64,000 bases of DNA, taken from the NCBI RefSeq assembly GCF_003018255.1, contig NZ_CP027440.1; one strand, 5' to 3'. The notes under the pieces are model-generated. The model was not told where the DNA came from, did no database searches, and saw nothing but the letters and a program-made list of their open reading frames with translations. Source of the stretch: Escherichia coli (GTDB lineage Bacteria > Pseudomonadota > Gammaproteobacteria > Enterobacterales > Enterobacteriaceae). Both the position numbers and the translations under genes were made by a program. How positions within the stretch are numbered: position 1 is the first letter of the stretch; the number at the start of each line of letters is the position of its first letter. Of the stretch, positions 1,859 to 59,699 are shown one piece after another.

Positions 1859-4460
1859 AGCGCAGATTAAAAATAAACGCCGTATCTCACCTTTCTGGCT
1901 GCTGCCGTTCATCGCGCTAATGATTGCCGGTTGGCTGATTTGGGATAGTTATCAGGACCGGGGTAATACCGTCACCATCGACTTTATGTCGGCGGATGGT
2001 ATTGTCCCGGGCCGCACCCCTGTTCGTTATCAGGGCGTTGAAGTCGGAACTGTGCAGGATATCAGCCTGAGCGACGATCTTCGTAAGATTGAAGTCAAGG
2101 TCAGCATCAAGTCTGATATGAAAGATGCGCTGCGCGAAGAGACACAGTTCTGGCTGGTGACGCCAAAGGCCTCACTGGCAGGTGTCTCCGGGCTGGATGC
2201 CCTCGTCGGTGGTAACTATATCGGCATGATGCCAGGTAAAGGTAAAGAGCAGGATCACTTTGTCGCACTCGATACCCAACCGAAGTATCGGCTGGATAAT
2301 GGCGATCTGATGATCCACCTGCAAGCCCCCGATCTCGGTTCACTGAACAGCGGTTCATTGGTCTATTTCCGTAAGATCCCGGTGGGTAAAGTCTACGACT
2401 ATGCCATCAATCCCAATAAGCAAGGCGTGGTGATTGATGTCCTGATCGAGCGGCGTTTTACCGACCTGGTGAAAAAAGGTAGCCGTTTCTGGAACGTTTC
2501 CGGCGTTGATGCCAACGTCAGTATCAGTGGCGCGAAGGTGAAACTGGAAAGTCTGGCGGCACTGGTTAACGGTGCGATTGCCTTCGATTCACCTGAAGAG
2601 TCGAAACCTGCCGAGGCGGAAGATACCTTTGGTCTGTATGAAGATCTCGCCCACAGCCAGCGTGGCGTAATAATAAAACTGGAACTGCCGAGTGGGGCCG
2701 GATTAACCGCCGACTCGACGCCGTTAATGTATCAGGGGCTGGAAGTCGGACAGCTGACTAAACTGGATTTAAATCCTGGTGGTAAAGTCACCGGAGAAAT
2801 GACCGTTGATCCCAGCGTCGTTACGCTGTTACGGGAAAATACCCGCATCGAATTACGTAATCCGAAATTATCCCTTAGCGATGCCAATCTCAGCGCCCTG
2901 CTGACCGGAAAAACCTTTGAGTTGGTGCCCGGCGATGGTGAGCCACGCAAAGAGTTCGTTGTTGTGCCAGGCGAAAAAGCCCTGCTACAAGAGCCGGATG
3001 TTCTGACACTGACCCTGACAGCACCAGAAAGTTACGGTATTGATGCTGGTCAGCCGCTCATTCTCCACGGTGTGCAAGTAGGCCAGGTTATTGATCGTAA
3101 ACTCACCAGCAAAGGCGTTACCTTTACCGTCGCCATCGAGCCTCAGCATCGCGAACTGGTAAAAGGCGATAGCAAATTTGTCGTCAACAGCCGTGTCGAC
3201 GTGAAGGTGGGGCTGGATGGCGTTGAGTTTCTCGGTGCCAGCGCCTCAGAATGGATTAACGGCGGGATACGTATTCTGCCGGGCGATAAAGGCGAGATGA
3301 AAGCCAGCTATCCACTGTATGCCAATCTGGAAAAAGCGCTGGAGAACAGCCTTAGCGATTTACCCACCACAACCGTAAGTTTGAGTGCAGAGACGCTGCC
3401 GGATGTGCAGGCAGGATCGGTAGTGCTGTACCGTAAATTTGAAGTTGGTGAAGTTATTACTGTGCGTCCGCGAGCTAACGCGTTTGATATCGATCTGCAT
3501 ATTAAGCCGGAGTATCGCAACCTTCTGACCAGCAACAGCGTGTTCTGGGCAGAAGGTGGGGCGAAAGTTCAGCTAAATGGTAGTGGTCTGACCGTACAGG
3601 CATCCCCGCTCTCCAGAGCATTAAAGGGGGCTATTAGCTTCGATAACCTCAGCGGTGCCAGCGCCAGTCAGCGTAAAGGCGACAAGCGTATTCTGTATGC
3701 TTCCGAAACAGCGGCCCGTGCGGTTGGCGGGCAAATTACGCTTCACGCTTTCGATGCCGGAAAACTGGCGGTCGGGATGCCAATTCGCTATCTCGGTATT
3801 GATATCGGGCAAATCCAGACGCTGGATCTGATTACCGCGCGCAATGAAGTACAGGCAAAGGCGGTACTTTACCCGGAATATGTCCAGACCTTTGCACGCG
3901 GTGGTACACGCTTCTCAGTGGTCACACCGCAAATTTCGGCAGCTGGCGTTGAGCATCTTGATACTATCCTCCAGCCGTATATCAACGTCGAACCAGGCCG
4001 GGGCAATCCTCGGCGCGACTTTGAATTACAAGAGGCTACCATAACTGATTCGCGTTACCTGGATGGCTTAAGCATTATTGTTGAAGCGCCGGAAGCCGGT
4101 TCGTTAGGCATCGGTACGCCTGTGCTGTTCCGTGGTCTGGAAGTCGGTACGGTTACCGGAATGACGCTGGGGACATTGTCAGATCGCGTGATGATTGCGA
4201 TGCGCATCAGTAAACGCTATCAACACCTGGTGCGTAACAATTCCGTCTTCTGGTTGGCATCGGGTTACAGTCTGGACTTTGGTCTGACGGGCGGCGTAGT
4301 GAAAACCGGCACCTTTAACCAGTTTATCCGTGGCGGCATCGCCTTCGCCACGCCTCCGGGTACGCCACTGGCACCGAAAGCCCAGGAAGGCAAGCACTTC
4401 CTGTTGCAGGAAAGTGAACCGAAAGAGTGGCGTGAATGGGGAACTGCGCTTCCCAAATAA
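1827..4460 (+). CDS. letB: Multi-MCE-domain periplasm-spanning tunnel protein LetB
   Basis: 877 aa from [27 protein letters not shown] (ORF track starts 14 codons earlier). Repeated MCE-like modules and an N-terminal TM anchor; overlaps the letA 3' end by 32 nt. Matches YebT. Confidence 0.9.
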
Positions 4461-4533
4461 TGCCCACTGCTCCGGCGTGCCTGCGCCGGAGCGTTTATGC
4501 TAAACTGCGCGCCTGTTTTTTTGCCAGTGGTAT

Positions 4534-5979
4534 ATGCTCGTGGCCCAACACACCGTTTATTTCCCGGACGCCTTTCTGACACAAATGCGCGAAGCGATGC
4601 CTTCGACGCTCTCTTTTGATGATTTTCTTGCCGCCTGTCAGCGCCCGTTGCGCCGCAGCATTCGCGTTAATACGCTGAAAACCTCCGTTGCTGATTTCCT
4701 GCAATTAACTGCTCCTTATGGCTGGACGCTTACGCCAATTCCGTGGTGTGAAGAAGGTTTCTGGATTGAACGCGACAGTGAAGATGCATTGCCGTTGGGT
4801 AGTACCGCCGAGCATTTAAGCGGCCTGTTTTATATTCAGGAAGCCAGTTCAATGTTGCCTGTTGCCGCCTTGTTTGCTGACGGTAATGCACCACAGCGGG
4901 TGATGGATGTCGCTGCCGCGCCCGGCTCCAAAACGACGCAAATTGCCGCGCGGATGAATAACGAAGGGGCAATCCTTGCCAATGAGTTTTCCGCCAGTCG
5001 GGTAAAAGTGTTACATGCCAATATCAGCCGCTGTGGCATCAGTAATGTTGCGCTCACGCATTTTGATGGCCGCGTATTTGGTGCGGCAGTGCCAGAAATG
5101 TTCGATGCCATTTTGCTGGACGCTCCCTGCTCCGGCGAAGGCGTGGTGCGTAAAGATCCCGATGCGCTAAAAAACTGGTCACCAGAAAGCAATCAGGAAA
5201 TCGCAGCGACCCAACGGGAACTGATCGACAGCGCCTTTCATGCATTACGTCCTGGCGGTACGCTGGTTTACTCGACCTGTACCTTAAACCGGGAAGAAAA
5301 CGAAGCCGTTTGCCTGTGGCTGAAAGAGACTTATCCCGACGCAGTAGAGTTTTTACCGCTTGGCGATCTCTTCCCTGGTGCAAACAAGGCGCTGACCGAG
5401 GAAGGCTTTTTGCATGTTTTCCCACAAATTTACGACTGCGAAGGCTTCTTCGTTGCTCGTCTGCGTAAAACTCAGGCGATTCCCGCCTTACCCACCCCAA
5501 AATACAAAGTGGGCAATTTCCCGTTCAGCCCGGTGAAAGATCGCGAAGCCGGACAAATTCGTCAGGCGGCTGCAAGTGTTGGCTTAAACTGGGATGAAAA
5601 CCTGCGACTCTGGCAGCGTGACAAAGAACTGTGGTTGTTCCCGGTGGGCATTGAAGCCCTGATCGGTAAAGTCCGATTTTCTCGCTTGGGGATTAAACTT
5701 GCCGAAACGCACAACAAAGGTTATCGCTGGCAGCATGAAGCCGTTATTGCCCTTGCCTCCCCCGACAATGTGAACGCTTTTGAACTGACACCGCAGGAAG
5801 CGGAAGAGTGGTATCGCGGGCGCGATGTTTACCCGCAAGCCGCGCCAGTAGCGGATGATGTATTGGTTACTTTCCAGCATCAGCCGATTGGTTTAGCCAA
5901 ACGGATTGGTTCGCGACTGAAAAACAGCTACCCGCGTGAACTGGTGCGCGATGGGAAACTTTTTACCGGTAACGCCTGA
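4534..5979 (+). CDS. rsmF: 16S rRNA m5C1407 methyltransferase
   Basis: 481 aa ORF with SAM-binding motif ([11 protein letters not shown]) and Sun/NOL1-type catalytic region (DAPCSGEG). Matches RsmF/YebU. Confidence 0.9.
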
Positions 5980-50495: not shown

Positions 50496-51949
<1,454 letters not shown>

Positions 51950-51951
51950 CG

Positions 51952-52812
51952 TTAATCCTTACTTAGCGCATACACCGTCTGACCACGCAGCGTGAAGCGG
52001 CGCTCAAGGTGGCTAAAGTTTTCAGAGTGACCCGCAAACAGCAATCCGTCGGGTTTAAGGAGCGGAACAAAGCGGCGCAAAATCTCCTGCTGGGTAGTTT
52101 GATCGAAGTAGATCATGACGTTACGACAGAAGATCGCATCAAACGGCCCCGGCACGGTGTACTGTTTCGCCAGTAAATTCAGCGGGGCAAAATCAACATA
52201 GTTCGCCAGCTCCTGACGCACGCGTACCAGCCCTTCATGCGGTCCCGTCCCTCGCATGAAATACCGTTGCAGTTGCTGCGGCGTCAGGTTTTTCAACTCT
52301 TCATGGCGATAAATACCGCTTCTGGCTTTTTCCAGCACTTCGGTGTCGATATCGCTGGCAAACACTTTCCAGCGTCCGGGCACGGTGCCCAATGTGTCAG
52401 CCAGCGTCATCGCAATGCTGTACGGCTCTTCGCCGGTCGAAGCCGCCGCGCTCCATACGCGATACTCGCCAGAACGGCGACGTGCGTGATCCGCGAGCAG
52501 AGGAAAATGATGCGCCTCACGGAAAAATGCCGTCAGATTCGTGGTCAGCGAATTGATAAACGCCTGCCACTCACCGCTGTGCAGATTAGATTCCAGCAAG
52601 TTCAGGTAATGACCGAAATCCGTCAGTCCCAGCGAACGCAAACGACGAACCAGTCGGTTGTAAACCATGTCGCGTTTATGGTCGGCCAGGACGATCCCGG
52701 CTCGTTGATAGATCAATTGACTTATCCGCCGAAAATGCGCGTCGGAAAGCGCCAGGCGCTCGGTCATCTGTAACAATAAAGACGTTTGCCCACAGGGCAG
52801 AGATGAAGTCAT
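51952..52812 (-). CDS. cheR: Chemotaxis receptor methyltransferase CheR
   Basis: 286 aa. Matches CheR. Confidence 0.95.
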
Positions 52813-52830: not shown

Positions 52831-54432
52831 TCAGGATACCACTGGCGCAATTTGTAACTGCGCCGACTCATGTCGTGCTACTTCATGCTCTTCAAGGGTA
52901 AATACCGCCACGCGCGACGAAAGATGGTCGGCCTGATTCGCCAGTTGTTCTGTTGCCACCGCCGCTTCTTCTACCAGGGAGGCGTTCTGCTGTGTCACCT
53001 GATCCATCTGGCTGACAGCCTGTGCAACCTGCTCAATCCCCCGCCGTTGTTCTTCCGAGGCCGAAGCAATTTCTCCCATAATGTCGTTCACGCGGGTCAC
53101 CGAACTGACAATATCAGTCATGGTCGCGGCGGCGTTATTCACCAGTTTCGAACCCTGCTGGACACGATTGACTGACTCTTCGATCAGCCCTTTGATCTCT
53201 TTTGCTGCCTGGGCGCTACGGCTGGCAAGATTGCGCACTTCACCTGCCACTACCGCAAAACCACGCCCCTGCTCTCCGGCGCGAGCCGCTTCCACTGCCG
53301 CATTCAGGGCCAGAATATTGGTCTGGAAAGCAATGCCGTCGATAACGCTGATAATGTCGCCAATTTTTTGCGAGCTGGTAGCGATCTCCTGCATGGTGTG
53401 AGTCATGGTACTGACCTGAACACCGCCCGCCTGCGCCGTTGTCGCGGCATTTTTTGCCAGTTCCGACGCCTGTCGTGCGTTATCGGCGTTTTGCCCTACC
53501 GTGGCGGTTAATTGCTCCATACTGGCGGCCGTTTGTGCCAGCGATGCCGCCTGCTGTTCGGTGCGACTTGAGAGATCGTTATTGCCTGCGACAATCTCCG
53601 CGATACCAATGTGCATCTCCTGGCTTCCCTTACGCACATCACTTACCGTCCCACGCAAAGCCTGCTGCATGGTCTTCAGGCTGGCAAAAATGGCGGTGAT
53701 CTCATTGCGACCATACACCGCAATCGGACGTGCCAGATTACCCGCAGCAATGCTGTCAAAATGGCTACCGATAATGGCCAGTGGTTGAACAATCATCTTG
53801 CGCGTCCACCACAGCGCACTGCTGATGTAGATCGCCGCAACAATAATCATGCTGATAAACACCAGCGCCGAAATGTGATAGTTACGCTGGCTTTGCGCAC
53901 TGGCACTTTCCAGCACATGGTTGATCTCCAGCTGCCAGGCCTCAAAGTTAACGTCAAACGCATTCTGTGATTCCTGCACCGGCGCAGTGAGGAAATCCGA
54001 AAGTTGATTACTTTCAAGCCAGGTCGCCTGATGTTCGAGATCGTTGTGCCAGCGGGCAAAACTTTTCTCCGTCTCTTTTTGCAACGCCCTGACGTGCTCG
54101 TTGCCCGCAGTCATCGCCATAAAACTTTTAAACAGCGTGGTGGATTGCGTCAGACTGGCGCGCGCCGTCGTCATCAACGTTTTAATGTCATCCGCCGGAT
54201 AGCTAAGCGCCGTCAGAGTGCCCGCTTTGTTCAGCGCGGTACTGGCCTGTAACATTACCGCCCGAGTTTGCGCTAATGCCGCACGTTGCTGATTGCTCTG
54301 CTCGACCTGATTCAGTCGTTGCAAATCGTCGCGAAATGCCCAAAAAGACATGCCGTTACTGCCAATCTGCAAGATCCCGCAGAGAATCAAAATTAAAAAC
54401 AGCGTGGTCGAAATTCGAATACGATTAAACAT
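52831..54432 (-). CDS. tap: Methyl-accepting chemotaxis protein IV (dipeptide / pyrimidine sensor)
   Basis: 533 aa from MFNRIRISTTLFLILILCG; MCP signalling domain; position downstream of tar. Confidence 0.9.
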   Translation of the reverse strand: MFNRIRISTTLFLILILCGILQIGSNGMSFWAFRDDLQRLNQVEQSNQQRAALAQTRAVMLQASTALNKAGTLTALSYPADDIKTLMTTARASLTQSTTLFKSFMAMTAGNEHVRALQKETEKSFARWHNDLEHQATWLESNQLSDFLTAPVQESQNAFDVNFEAWQLEINHVLESASAQSQRNYHISALVFISMIIVAAIYISSALWWTRKMIVQPLAIIGSHFDSIAAGNLARPIAVYGRNEITAIFASLKTMQQALRGTVSDVRKGSQEMHIGIAEIVAGNNDLSSRTEQQAASLAQTAASMEQLTATVGQNADNARQASELAKNAATTAQAGGVQVSTMTHTMQEIATSSQKIGDIISVIDGIAFQTNILALNAAVEAARAGEQGRGFAVVAGEVRNLASRSAQAAKEIKGLIEESVNRVQQGSKLVNNAAATMTDIVSSVTRVNDIMGEIASASEEQRRGIEQVAQAVSQMDQVTQQNASLVEEAAVATEQLANQADHLSSRVAVFTLEEHEVARHESAQLQIAPVVS

Positions 54433-54477
54433 CAACGCTCCCCATCAGGCGGCAATGACCGCGTTAGTAAATACTCG

Positions 54478-56139
54478 TCAAAATGTTTCCCAGTTTGGAT
54501 CTTGTTCAGCAATTCGCAGTCGTGGCTGTGCCGGTGGTTGCTCACTGGCAGGACGGGATGGTGTTTGCGGTTTATTGGTGAGTGGGCTGGCTGCCAGACG
54601 GAACGCGGAAACCGCTTGCGTTAAACGACTCGCCTGTTCTTCCAGCGCAGCTGCGGCGGCAGCTGATTCCTGCACCAGCGATGCGTTCTGTTGCGTGACG
54701 CGATCCATTTCCGAAACCGCCAATGCGACTTGATCGATGCCACGGCTCTGTTCATCCGATGCCGATGCAATCTCGCCCATAATGTCAGTCACGCGAGTGA
54801 CAGCATTGACGATATTGTTCATTGTTTCCCCGGCGCTTTCGACCAGCACCGAACCGGTATCAACGCGCGAGACGGAGTCTTCAATGAGGGCTTTGATCTC
54901 TTTTGCCGCCTGGGCGCTGCGACTGGCAAGATTACGCACTTCGCCCGCCACCACGGCAAAACCACGGCCCTGTTCACCCGCTCGTGCGGCTTCAACAGCG
55001 GCATTCAGCGCGAGGATATTAGTCTGGAAGGCAATACCATCGATAACGCTGATAATGTCGGCAATTTTCTTCGAACTATCGGCGATCTCATGCATCGTTT
55101 TCACTACGCCATCCACCACTTTGCCGCCGTGCTGGGCGGTGTCGGAGGCACTTTGCGCCAGTTGCGAGGCCTGGCGGGCGTTATCGGCGTTTTGCTTCAC
55201 TGTCGCGGTGAGCTGCTCCATGCTGGCGGCAGTTTCTTCCAGCGCGGATGCCTGCTGTTCCGTACGGGAGGAAAGATCGGTGTTGCCCGCCGCAATTTCA
55301 CGGGTACCGGCATAGATGGCATCTGAACCTTCACGCACATGAGTGACGGTGTCAGTCAAAGAGCGTTGCATATGTGAAACGCTCTGCGCCAGGTCGCCCA
55401 TTTCACTGCGCCCGTCAATGGTCAGGGTATTCGCCAGGTTACCACCGGCGATTTCGCGAATGTGAGCAATAATTTTTGCCAGCGGTGTAAGCAACATACG
55501 GCGAATGCCGTACCACGCCACCAGCAGAATCAATACCACCACCAGCGCGATAACCGCCAGTTGCCACTGGGCAAATCGGTAATCATCTGCGTTGTCAGTG
55601 ACGATATCGCGATACAGTTTTTCACTGCTGAGGGCGTACTGAGCAAACGCTTCGCCCATTGCATTTTGCATTCCCTGGGTTGGCTGAGCGAAATAAGCTC
55701 CAGTATTGCCATAATCAAGATAATCAATCAGTTCAGTTAACGCTGTGTGATAGTTTTTATATTTTTCATCAATATTACGACTGGTAGCGACCATTTCAGG
55801 TAACGGTGCCATGCTTTTGAATTTTTTATAATGAGTCGCTGCCTGGGCCAATGTTTTCCTGGCGCTATCGAGCAATTCAACTTTGGCATTACTTTGCTGA
55901 TTGGATGAATCCATCATCATCCGCACCGCTGAACGACTCAGGTTAATGCGCGTTTGCAGCATTAAATCCCATGTTGACGTCAGCTCGCCCTGCTGTTCCC
56001 GTAATTGATTGGAAACCACAAAGCTCTTCTGGCTATGGTGAAGGGAAGAAAAAAACAGACTGCCGGAAATAAGCTGTAACAGTGCGAATACCCCCAGCAC
56101 CATTACCAACAGCGTGACTACGCGGATACGGTTAATCAT
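54478..56139 (-). CDS. tar: Methyl-accepting chemotaxis protein II (aspartate / maltose sensor)
   Basis: 553 aa from [23 protein letters not shown]; ends with the NWETF pentapeptide. Confidence 0.9.
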
Positions 56140-56170: not shown

Positions 56171-56197
56171 TTATCGGCAAGGAAGGGGGAAACTTTA
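56171..56197 (-). promoter_or_regulatory. sigma28 (FliA) class 3 promoter of the tar-tap-cheRBYZ operon
   Basis: Minus strand TAAAGTTT, 11-nt spacer (cccccttcctt), GCCGATAA; a perfect match to the sigma28 consensus about 30 nt upstream of the tar start. Confidence 0.7.
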
Positions 56198-56228
56198 TTG
56201 CTGATGCCACCCGCCGCGAAACTGAAAT

Positions 56229-56257
56229 AAAAAACCCGATGCGCAGATCATCGGGTT
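56229..56257 (-). terminator. Intrinsic terminator downstream of cheW
   Basis: Minus strand AACCCGATGATCTGCGCATCGGGTTTTTT. Confidence 0.55.
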
Positions 56258-56283: not shown

Positions 56284-56787
56284 TTACGCCACTTCTGACG
56301 CCGCGCTATCTAACAGCGCCATCTCTTCGCTGTTCAGCAGTTTTTCGATGTTCACCAGAATCAACATACGGTCGCCCAGTGCACCCAGTCCAGTGAGATA
56401 TTCTGTTGAAAGCGTCACGGCAAATTCCGGTGCCGGACGAATTTGCTCCGCCGTCAATGAAAGCACGTCTGAGACGCCGTCAACCACGATGCCGACCACC
56501 CGCTGTCCGAGATTCAGGACGATAACTACCGTGTTGTCGTTATAGTCCACATCCACCTGGCTGAACTTAATTCGTAAGTCCACAATCGGCACAATAACAC
56601 CGCGCAGATTCGTGACGCCTTTGATAAACGCTGGCGTGTTCGCAATCCGTGTTACCTGATCGTAGCCACGGATCTCCTGCACTTTCAGAATATCAATACC
56701 GTACTCTTCATCACCAAGGGTAAATACCAGAAATTCCTGGCCTGACGGCTCGCTGGCCAGCTTTGTTACATTCGTCATACCGGTCAT
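56284..56787 (-). CDS. cheW: Chemotaxis coupling protein CheW
   Basis: 167 aa. Matches CheW. Confidence 0.95.

Positions 56788-56807: not shown

Positions 56808-59699
<2,892 letters not shown>

Follow-up and report, generated by a model that had tools for sequence, protein, structure and literature searches.

Genes and features of the tar-tap locus

The window analysed here, a stretch of 64,000 nucleotides of Escherichia coli DNA, contains the canonical tar-tap locus of this species, whose anatomy is already known. Two chemoreceptor genes, tar and tap, lie next to each other in the same orientation, separated by a spacer of 45 nt (Table 1). They head an operon that reads tar-tap-cheR-cheB in the window, with cheA-cheW upstream of it; tar directly follows cheW, and tap is placed between tar and cheR. 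In E. coli, tar-tap-cheR-cheB-cheY-cheZ is a flagellar class-3 operon. Upstream of tar we find a perfect match to the sigma-28 (FliA) consensus, and from what is established for the tar-tap-cheRBYZ operon this site presumably acts as the promoter.

The K-12 chromosome carries the same genes in the same order, with the same spacing and operon context. By domain, tar is 98.5-99% identical to K-12 tar (b1886) and tap 97-99% identical to K-12 tap (b1885) at the nucleotide level. The differences are strain-level SNPs only; the longest tract that tar and tap have in common measures 24 nt in K-12 and 21 nt in the window. Strain JNE23-011 is 99.9% identical to the window over 3.6 kb, and the identity of tar agrees with the RefSeq annotation of a 99.9% identical genome. 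Tar ends with the pentapeptide NWETF, and Tap has a short tail without it, ending in QIAPVVS. Identity to K-12, the position after cheW and the C-terminal NWETF identify tar as the MCP-II ortholog, just as identity to K-12, the position between tar and cheR and the short NWETF-less tail identify tap as the MCP-IV ortholog. Ligand specificity is taken solely from the orthologous K-12 genes: Tar would sense aspartate and maltose, and Tap dipeptides via DppA. TarH, HAMP and MCPsignal domains are found by Pfam, in that order and above the gathering score, in Tar, in Tap and in a natural fusion of both that is described below, and all three are transmembrane methyl-accepting chemotaxis proteins of the four-helix-bundle sensor class.

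Table 1. Coordinates of genes, domains, shared tracts and other features at the tar-tap locus (window positions).
Feature	Position	Strand	Remarks and basis
tar, aspartate/maltose chemoreceptor (MCP-II)	54478-56139	-	553 aa; ORF, translation, Pfam, K-12 identity
tap, dipeptide chemoreceptor (MCP-IV)	52831-54432	-	533 aa, intact; ORF, Pfam, K-12 identity
NWETF codons, C-terminal end of tar	54481-54495	-	translation
sigma-28 (FliA) consensus upstream of tar, TAAAGTTT-N11-GCCGATAA	56171-56197	-	pattern match only
Signalling/adaptation domain, tar copy	54595-55344	-	Tar residues 266-515; codon alignment; blastn core 54674-55299
Signalling/adaptation domain, tap copy	52894-53643	-	Tap residues 264-513; blastn core 52973-53598
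Longest identical tract, CGACATTATCAGCGTTATCGA	tar copy 55040-55060, tap copy 53339-53359	-	21 nt; in-register comparison
Second-longest identical tract, GCAAAACGCCGATAACGC	tar copy 55178-55195, tap copy 53477-53494	-	18 nt; in-register comparison
Crossover tract, hybrid allele 1 (WP_096259879.1)	55040-55060/53339-53359	-	21-24 nt; junction mapping
Crossover tract, hybrid allele 2 (WP_098723133.1)	55178-55195/53477-53494	-	18 nt; junction mapping
Antisense ORF in tap	53081-53401	+	106 aa; by-product, not gene
Antisense ORF in tar	54737-55315	+	192 aa; same relative frame as in tap; by-product, not gene

Resemblance and age of the two receptor genes

The original prediction described tar and tap as tandem paralogs that share a signalling domain about 1.7 kb apart. 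This is correct: the copies are direct and in frame, offset by exactly 1701 nt (567 codons), and the repeat interval proposed at the time, 52995-55275, agrees with the blastn match between the two cores (74.0% identity over 634 aligned positions, E = 4e-108). The DNA similarity is far beyond chance. That the encoded domains are near-identical holds for a part of them. The hairpin core (Tar residues 350-420) is 93% identical to Tap, Tar residues 360-417 show a single mismatch, and the 49-residue peptide cited as an example occurs in both proteins; the rest of the domain is less alike, so that the whole signalling and adaptation region reaches 72%.

The claim of near-identical or highly similar DNA has to be given up. 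Codon alignment of the signalling domains (250 codons, 750 nt) gives 68.9% nucleotide and 71.6% amino acid identity with pS 0.68 and dS 1.79, compared with 39% and 21% identity, respectively, for the ligand-binding domains. Ungapped and in register, identity amounts to 70% across a stretch of 300 nt and 73% across one of 185 nt. In 90-nt windows it peaks at 0.81-0.84, and third-position identity is only 0.30-0.60 in such windows across the signalling domain. The longest identical tracts in the window are 21, 18 and 16 nt, and megablast returns no match between the two genes. With 69-74% identity and a longest tract of 21 nt, the DNA falls on the wrong side of the limit that the prediction had set itself, namely less than about 75% identity and no long identical tracts. 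A recombinogenic direct repeat would be expected to have uninterrupted identity over tens to hundreds of nt; here the window has no more than 21 nt of it and other strains have 24-28 nt, the longest tract being 24 nt in most sampled E. coli and 28 nt in one O157-like genome of a 12-genome sample. A conserved peptide in tandem paralogs is thus not equivalent to near-identical DNA or to active gene conversion.

The antisense ORFs that mirror each other in both copies do exist, yet they are nothing special. Their length (106 and 192 aa), common relative frame and similar translations could be taken as signs of real overlapping genes conserved in both copies, an idea to which we give practically no credence. 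When synonymous codons were resampled with the protein held fixed, two of the three frames on the opposite strand had stop-free runs of 120-140 codons on average, and the observed runs lie in or near this range in tar and tap as well as in tsr and trg, which are unlinked. Tyr occurs 0-1 times and His 3 times in the signalling domains, and it is the codons of Tyr, His and Gln that make the stops of that antisense frame. The two ORFs resemble each other because their sense strands do, and they are a by-product of amino acid composition.

How old the duplication is can be judged from comparison with other receptors and other genera. In E. coli, tar and the unlinked tsr are more alike (75.9% nucleotide and 83% amino acid identity, a 28-nt identical tract) than tar and tap, hence linkage adds no similarity; Aer shares 83.6% over 122 nt with the tap hairpin. 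The order cheW-tar-tap-cheR-cheB is kept in Citrobacter werkmanii and Enterobacter sp. Ag1, and Yersinia, Acerihabitans and Photorhabdus have a two-MCP tandem in the same slot. In a protein tree of the signalling domains, the upstream genes (NWETF) and the downstream ones (tap-like) fall into distinct clades that each span several genera, with the orthologs of Escherichia, Citrobacter, Enterobacter and Yersinia grouping by gene. Within E. coli, Tar and Tap are 72% identical in amino acids and 69% in nucleotides, which is below both ortholog comparisons between E. coli and Citrobacter (Tar 96% and 81%, Tap 83% and 74%); under concerted evolution, the two copies of one genome should resemble each other more closely than each resembles its ortholog in another species. 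This dating rests on few genera, as the Tap-based scan of genome contigs gave about six usable enterobacterial loci among the matches listed, which were mostly distant Burkholderiales MCPs.

Population variants likewise give no sign of the gene conversion that had been proposed between tar and tap. In 12 E. coli genomes with about 30 SNPs per gene, a sample in which rare short tracts would escape, minor alleles of tar carry the tap base at 9 sites (10.3 expected), those of tap the tar base at 4 sites (5.4 expected), and no convincing runs of adjacent paralog-matching sites are seen, as concerted evolution would leave them. The identity between tar and tap is 68.5-69.3% in all 12 genomes.

A recent duplication or ongoing conversion has some points in its favor, among them the tandem direct orientation with its in-frame 1701-nt register and the drifting of sites by which the 21-nt tract becomes 24 nt in most genomes and an O157-like genome has a 28-nt tract. 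Moreover, in the nucleotide tree, though not in the protein tree, the gene pairs of Acerihabitans and Photorhabdus group by species, possibly as a result of base composition or of conversion in these two genera. For E. coli, however, this explanation is largely refuted and we regard it as very improbable: dS is saturated at about 1.8, third positions are poorly conserved, tar is nearer to tsr, orthologs cluster by gene in four or more genera, and minor alleles match the paralog at the expected rate. Since tar is closer to tsr, orthologs group by gene and conversion shows no excess, the duplication is best regarded as ancient, and the sequences indicate that it predates the divergence of the enterobacterial genera.

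The cytoplasmic signalling and adaptation domain is the four-helix hairpin of the receptor; it contacts CheA and CheW, is modified by CheR and CheB and takes part in mixed trimers of dimers. Purifying selection on the protein has kept these domains alike, while the ligand-binding halves diverged past DNA recognition. The remaining DNA resemblance of 69-74% is only what protein constraint forces, with synonymous sites saturated and copies that are not homogenised. We put the probability at roughly 0.9 that tar and tap are ancient paralogs whose signalling domains are similar through selection on the protein and which give rise to rare in-register fusions at short identical tracts.

Natural tar-tap fusions and their formation

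Deletions creating tar-tap hybrid receptors had been suggested as a consequence of the repeat, and such hybrid alleles are indeed found in population genomes. Three of 5,426 complete E. coli genomes (ET474, PEC389 and ETEC4088; ~0.06%) have an in-frame tar-tap fusion, an intact ORF of 1608 nt between cheW and cheR, as do many draft assemblies, so that in-register deletion products, as expected of a recombinogenic repeat, are present in real genomes. The parental sequence switches cleanly at the 21-nt tract in ET474 and PEC389 and at the 18-nt tract in ETEC4088; the crossovers sit in the two longest identical tracts, and the fusions stem from at least two events. Of the two fusion proteins, WP_096259879.1 and WP_098723133.1, both of 535 aa, the first occurs on 71 contigs and in 140 collection blocks, the second on 28 contigs and in 58 blocks. 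Among 24 contigs read per fusion protein, the context was always cheA-cheW-fusion-cheR-cheB. The carriers were isolated in the wild, with pig and frog among the sources. Annotation pipelines label the chimeras simply 'tar', and the literature that could be searched yielded no mention of tar-tap fusions in wild strains.

Fusions were searched for by megablast with a synthetic tar5'-tap3' query. Coverage did not discriminate, with 5,375 genomes at at least 80%, since megablast ran on through the similar domain and pieces were then joined; when ranked by identity, the three genuine one-piece fusions came first. Of the 5,386 complete genomes that have tar, about 5 at most can carry an in-register fusion. 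A reciprocal tap5'-tar3' hybrid gave no one-piece, high-identity match in the 5,426 complete genomes. About 1,060 of these genomes, at 62% coverage, had been suspected as hybrids and turned out to lack 1374 nt within tap (window 52940-54298), deleted at 8-11 nt of microhomology, with tar intact. Three further candidates have a 222-nt internal deletion of tar at a repeat of ~19 nt.

All evidence for the fusions comes from assembled sequence, and repeats can collapse during assembly. An origin of the fusions as artefacts, by collapse of the similar domains, is nevertheless extremely improbable: the copies are about 70% identical without any identical tract longer than 28 nt and hence too divergent to collapse, the junctions are clean single switches in intact ORFs, and complete genomes of independent origin, from China and Korea, carry identical fusions, as do many separate assemblies at NCBI, ENA and Logan.

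Because the copies share orientation and reading frame at a distance of 1701 nt, a deletion between them leaves an in-frame gene. Rare exchange or slippage inside an identical tract of 18-24 nt would delete exactly 1701 nt and join the sensor, HAMP domain and first methylation helix of Tar to the part of Tap that comprises the tip of the hairpin, the second methylation helix and the tail without NWETF, in a gene that would be driven from the tar promoter. The sequences directly show the anatomy of the locus, the divergence, the lack of a conversion signal and the natural fusions with their breakpoints; the route of the deletion, RecA-dependent exchange or RecA-independent slippage, and the phenotype of the fusions are inferred. 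The minimal pairing length for RecA-dependent exchange in E. coli is about 23-27 bp, and as the longest tract in the window, 21 nt, is at or below this length, the route is uncertain. We give slightly less than even odds to replication slippage or template switching at short direct repeats in place of RecA-mediated unequal exchange. The tracts used (18 and 21-24 nt) are around or below the RecA minimum, and the other deletions at this locus, within tap and within tar, likewise use short imperfect repeats. Unequal sister exchange should also yield the reciprocal product. That none was found in the 5,426 genomes fits slippage as well, but it is weak evidence since duplications are unstable and probably costly, and a preference for the longest tracts suits both routes.

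Comparison with known hybrids and receptor classes

The NWETF pentapeptide is a tether for CheR and CheB. By sequence, Tap and Trg lack it. Tsr and Tar are the high-abundance, NWETF-bearing receptors, and Tap and Trg the low-abundance receptors with a shorter C-terminus (PMC4692393). The Tar of the window carries the tail of the high-abundance class and Tap does not, and the natural fusions place a Tar sensor on a Tap-type, NWETF-less tail, so their adaptation would probably need help in trans from Tsr. It is conceivable, though in our view rather unlikely, that commensal and livestock lineages of E. coli maintain both fusion alleles as receptor variants, and that these are not just neutral debris. 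If so, such cells would sense aspartate and maltose through an NWETF-less Tap-type module expressed from the tar promoter, with retuned kinase bias and adaptation, and would have discarded dipeptide taxis.

Loss of tap has been described for uropathogenic/B2-type E. coli (Lane et al., 2006, J Bacteriol 188:5618, as cited in PMC3559539). Like the fusions, it is a structural change at this locus through which Tap function is lost, and a common one. It differs in being a deletion inside tap with tar intact and not a tar-tap exchange, and in its frequency, with ~1,060 genomes against three.

Tar-Tap fusions as such are also known already. Laboratory Tar-Tap hybrid transducers were reportedly described by Slocum, Halden and Parkinson in 1987 and by Weerasuriya, Schneider and Manson in 1998, and spontaneous tar-tap deletions via the homologous 3' regions are said to have yielded proteins with N-terminal Tar and C-terminal Tap. 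The natural 535-aa fusions have the same architecture. The former, however, are laboratory isolates or engineered constructs, whereas the natural alleles circulate in wild isolates. The addition made here is therefore modest and lies at the population level: fusions known from the laboratory also occur in nature, with breakpoints in the longest tracts of 18-24 nt, and provide a natural example of how deletion at short homology leads to a chimeric, domain-swapped receptor.

Similarity of tar and tap in protein and in DNA

The chemotaxis cluster cheA, cheW, tar, tap, cheR and cheB lies with every gene on the minus strand, and RefSeq names the genes of matching genomes tar, tap, cheR and cheW. 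Over 3.6 kb, E. coli JNE23-011 is 99.9% identical to the window, and K-12-type strains are 98.5% identical across the same stretch. Tar and Tap, by orthology to the K-12 genes the aspartate/maltose and dipeptide receptors, share the Pfam order TarH, HAMP, MCPsignal, and a spacer of only 45 nt separates their genes. Just past cheW, upstream of the predicted sigma-28 site, a GC-rich hairpin followed by a T-run (AACCCGATGATCTGCGCATCGGGTTTTTT; ~56206-56245, minus strand) looks like an intrinsic terminator.

Features of the tar-tap locus and of related loci (window coordinates unless a locus is named)
Feature	Position	Strand	Basis or remark
cheA	56808-58826	-	ORF listing; start possibly over-extended
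cheW	56284-56787	-	ORF listing
sigma-28 (FliA) predicted promoter, perfect consensus	56171-56197	-	pattern TAAAGTTT-N11-GCCGATAA, upstream of tar
tar	54478-56139	-	ORF and translation
tap	52831-54432	-	ORF and translation; intact in window
cheR	51952-52812	-	ORF listing
cheB	50900-51949	-	ORF listing
antisense ORF in tar	54737-55315	+	six-frame ORF listing
antisense ORF in tap	53081-53401	+	six-frame ORF listing
repeats bounding the 222-nt tar deletion	54740-54758, 54962-54980		two hairpin arms
tandem MCP genes, loci L012 and L013	~2250-3950 and 4001-5600

The 49-residue peptide that the original prediction had placed in both receptors was found in Tar and Tap alike, and Tar residues 360-417 differ from Tap by a single mismatch. 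The two DNA copies line up in register when shifted by exactly 1701 nt (567 codons), and blastn matched tar 54674-55299 to tap 52973-53598 at 74.0% identity across 634 aligned positions (E = 4e-108), consistent with the coordinates proposed for a DNA repeat. Near-identity of the DNA, which had also been claimed, was not found: identity is 68.9% across the signalling/adaptation domain of 250 codons, 70% and 73% in ungapped stretches of 300 and 185 nt, and 0.81-0.84 in the highest-scoring 90-nt windows, the three longest identical tracts in the window measure 21, 18 and 16 nt, and megablast of tar against tap returned no match. With identity below about 75% and no long identical tracts, the outcome that the original prediction had itself named as refuting, the claim does not hold at the DNA level.

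Protein constraint and age of the duplication

By Nei-Gojobori counting, the signalling domains of tar and tap gave a pS of 0.68, a dS of 1.79 and a dN of 0.22, and the hairpin core (Tar residues 350-420) is 93% identical in protein, yet has a dS of 1.3. Silent sites are thus saturated, and constraint on the protein accounts for the resemblance of the DNA. Comparison of tar 54595-55344 with the unlinked K-12 tsr (locus L003, 1158-2813) gave 75.9% nucleotide and 83% amino acid identity in the signalling domain, with an identical tract of 28 nt; aer matches the tap hairpin at 83.6% across 122 nt. Judged by sequence comparison, tsr is nearer to tar than tap is, and physical linkage contributes nothing to the tar/tap similarity. 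Ectopic exchange between tar and tsr would delete or invert large chromosome segments.

Mirrored antisense ORFs are present in both copies, as predicted, and share a relative frame because 1701 is divisible by three. When the protein was kept fixed and synonymous codons were resampled, two antisense frames out of three had stop-free runs of 120-140 codons on average, and the actual runs in tar and tap, as well as in tsr and trg, which are unlinked, lie in or near the simulated range. The signalling domains contain 0-1 Tyr and 3 His, and it is Tyr, His and Gln codons that can give rise to stops in that antisense frame. On these codon-level grounds, the antisense ORFs are a by-product.

Among the matches listed, the order cheW-tar-tap-cheR-cheB also occurs in Citrobacter werkmanii (79% identity to E. 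coli for Tar, 78% for Tap) and Enterobacter sp. Ag1, and in Yersinia aldovae, Acerihabitans arboris and Photorhabdus cinerea this position is taken by two MCP genes. A protein tree of the signalling domains from these genera places the upstream genes, encoding the C-terminal pentapeptide NWETF, in one clade and the tap-like downstream genes in another. Within this domain, amino acid identity between E. coli and Citrobacter is 96% for Tar and 83% for Tap, and Tar and Tap of E. coli share 72%. In a nucleotide tree, the tandem pairs of A. arboris (L012) and P. cinerea (L013) group by species rather than with the genes in the matching position of other genomes, with 75% and 69% nucleotide identity within the pair, which could reflect convergence in base composition or gene conversion there. 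Gene conversion between tar and tap, as had been proposed, left no sign among 12 diverse E. coli genomes: minor alleles equal to the paralogous base were not above expectation in tar (9 observed, 10.3 expected) or tap (4 and 5.4), and tar/tap identity is 68.5-69.3% in all twelve.

Deletions and decay elsewhere at the locus

About 1,060 of the 5,426 complete E. coli genomes, ATCC 25922 'Seattle 1946', NCTC9022 and an O18 strain among them, have lost 1374 nt from within tap (window 52940-54298). The direct microhomology TCG(G/A)CCTGATTC borders this deletion on both sides (repeats at 52928-52939 and 54302-54313), and an annotated tap remnant of 152 nt is left. These genomes keep tar intact, and the deletion is no tar-tap exchange. 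Published work describes loss of Tap in uropathogenic strains (PMC3559539, citing Lane et al. 2006), and the deletion seen here fits it. In strains 472, 673 and PI24 (locus L009, 1501-2940), an in-frame tar deletion of 222 nt lies between the imperfect direct repeats GG(G/A)TGAACAG(G/A)GCCGTGG, encoding EQGRG and EQSRG; it removes about 74 residues round the hairpin tip and probably inactivates the receptor.

In JNE23-011, the genome closest to the window, the tap gene (locus L002, 1632-3233) is annotated as a pseudogene, and its sole difference from the window, a C-to-T change at tap nt 286 (window 54147), creates a stop at codon 96. Frameshifts among the sampled genomes affect tap in VL40 and cheR in CUPF12 and in one fusion carrier (L099); together with the stop codon, they suggest frequent decay of chemotaxis genes. 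Several genomes have a tar-3'/tap-5' span of 2019 or 1761-1784 nt versus the expected 1701, with the annotation changed to 'Tar ligand binding domain-containing protein' or to tap lacking the 'IV', and may represent further structural variants of the locus.

Natural tar-tap fusions

The repeat was also predicted to be a substrate for deletions that create hybrid receptors, and this is borne out by natural isolates. A synthetic tar5'-tap3' fusion, used as query against 5,426 complete E. coli genomes, gave one-piece, full-length, top-ranked matches in three, all in register: ET474 (frog faeces, China), PEC389 (pig faeces, Korea) and ETEC4088 (pig faeces, Belgium). Each carries one intact 1608-nt ORF, flanked by cheW and cheR and annotated merely as tar. 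Site-by-site parental assignment revealed a single clean switch in each fusion. ET474 and PEC389 share one sequence (WP_096259879.1), with the switch within a 21-nt tract (55040-55060 / 53339-53359; 24 nt in most sampled E. coli), and ETEC4088 (WP_098723133.1) switches within an 18-nt tract (55178-55195 / 53477-53494). These are the two longest tar/tap identical tracts; assuming uniform breakpoints over the ~765-nt alignable region, we calculate a chance of about 1-2 in 1,000 that both would fall there. The nearest parents are K-12-like alleles, with 0-2 mismatches per part.

WP_096259879.1 was found in 71 contigs and 140 collection blocks, WP_098723133.1 in 28 contigs and 58 blocks, and the order cheA-cheW-fusion-cheR-cheB-cheY-cheZ was present in 24 of 24 contigs read per protein. 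One carrier is 12 SNPs apart over 6.6 kb, chiefly in cheA, so the first fusion either persisted and diversified or arose more than once. Of the 5,426 genomes, unique-sequence queries recovered 5,386 with the tar sensor region and 5,381 with the tar-3'/spacer/tap-5' junction, which limits in-register fusions to about five genomes.

In L096, the locus of the O157-type strain VTEC+, the longest in-register identical tract is 28 nt (tar nt 1222) and sits elsewhere than the 24-nt tract of most strains, thus the favoured crossover site may vary by lineage. Plasmid-classed records gave two to five tar/tap matches, including to the unique tar sensor and junction queries.

As to the route of deletion, RecA-mediated unequal exchange may account for the fusions, but we lean slightly, and not decisively, towards RecA-independent slippage between short direct repeats: the crossover tracts are just 18-24 nt, a reciprocal tap5'-tar3' gene was not found among the 5,426 genomes, and other deletions at the locus also use short repeats.

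The fusions retain the sensor, transmembrane segments, HAMP domain and first methylation helix of Tar, and gain the hairpin tip, second methylation helix and NWETF-less tail of Tap. NWETF is a tether for CheR and CheB that also works in trans from neighbouring receptors (PMC4692393). Hence, adaptation of the fusions is expected to depend on Tsr, and they should sense aspartate and maltose with a changed kinase bias, with dipeptide taxis lost. Spontaneous laboratory tar-tap fusions, described by Slocum et al. in 1987, reportedly had lowered aspartate sensitivity, one being locked counter-clockwise, and Weerasuriya et al. are said to have found in 1998 that the Tap cytoplasmic domain is poor at generating a clockwise signal. 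The paralogy of tar and tap, their conserved signalling domain and the capacity for Tar-Tap hybrids have been known for a long time; that fusions occur in wild isolates, joined within the longest identical tracts, is a small and possibly unreported addition.
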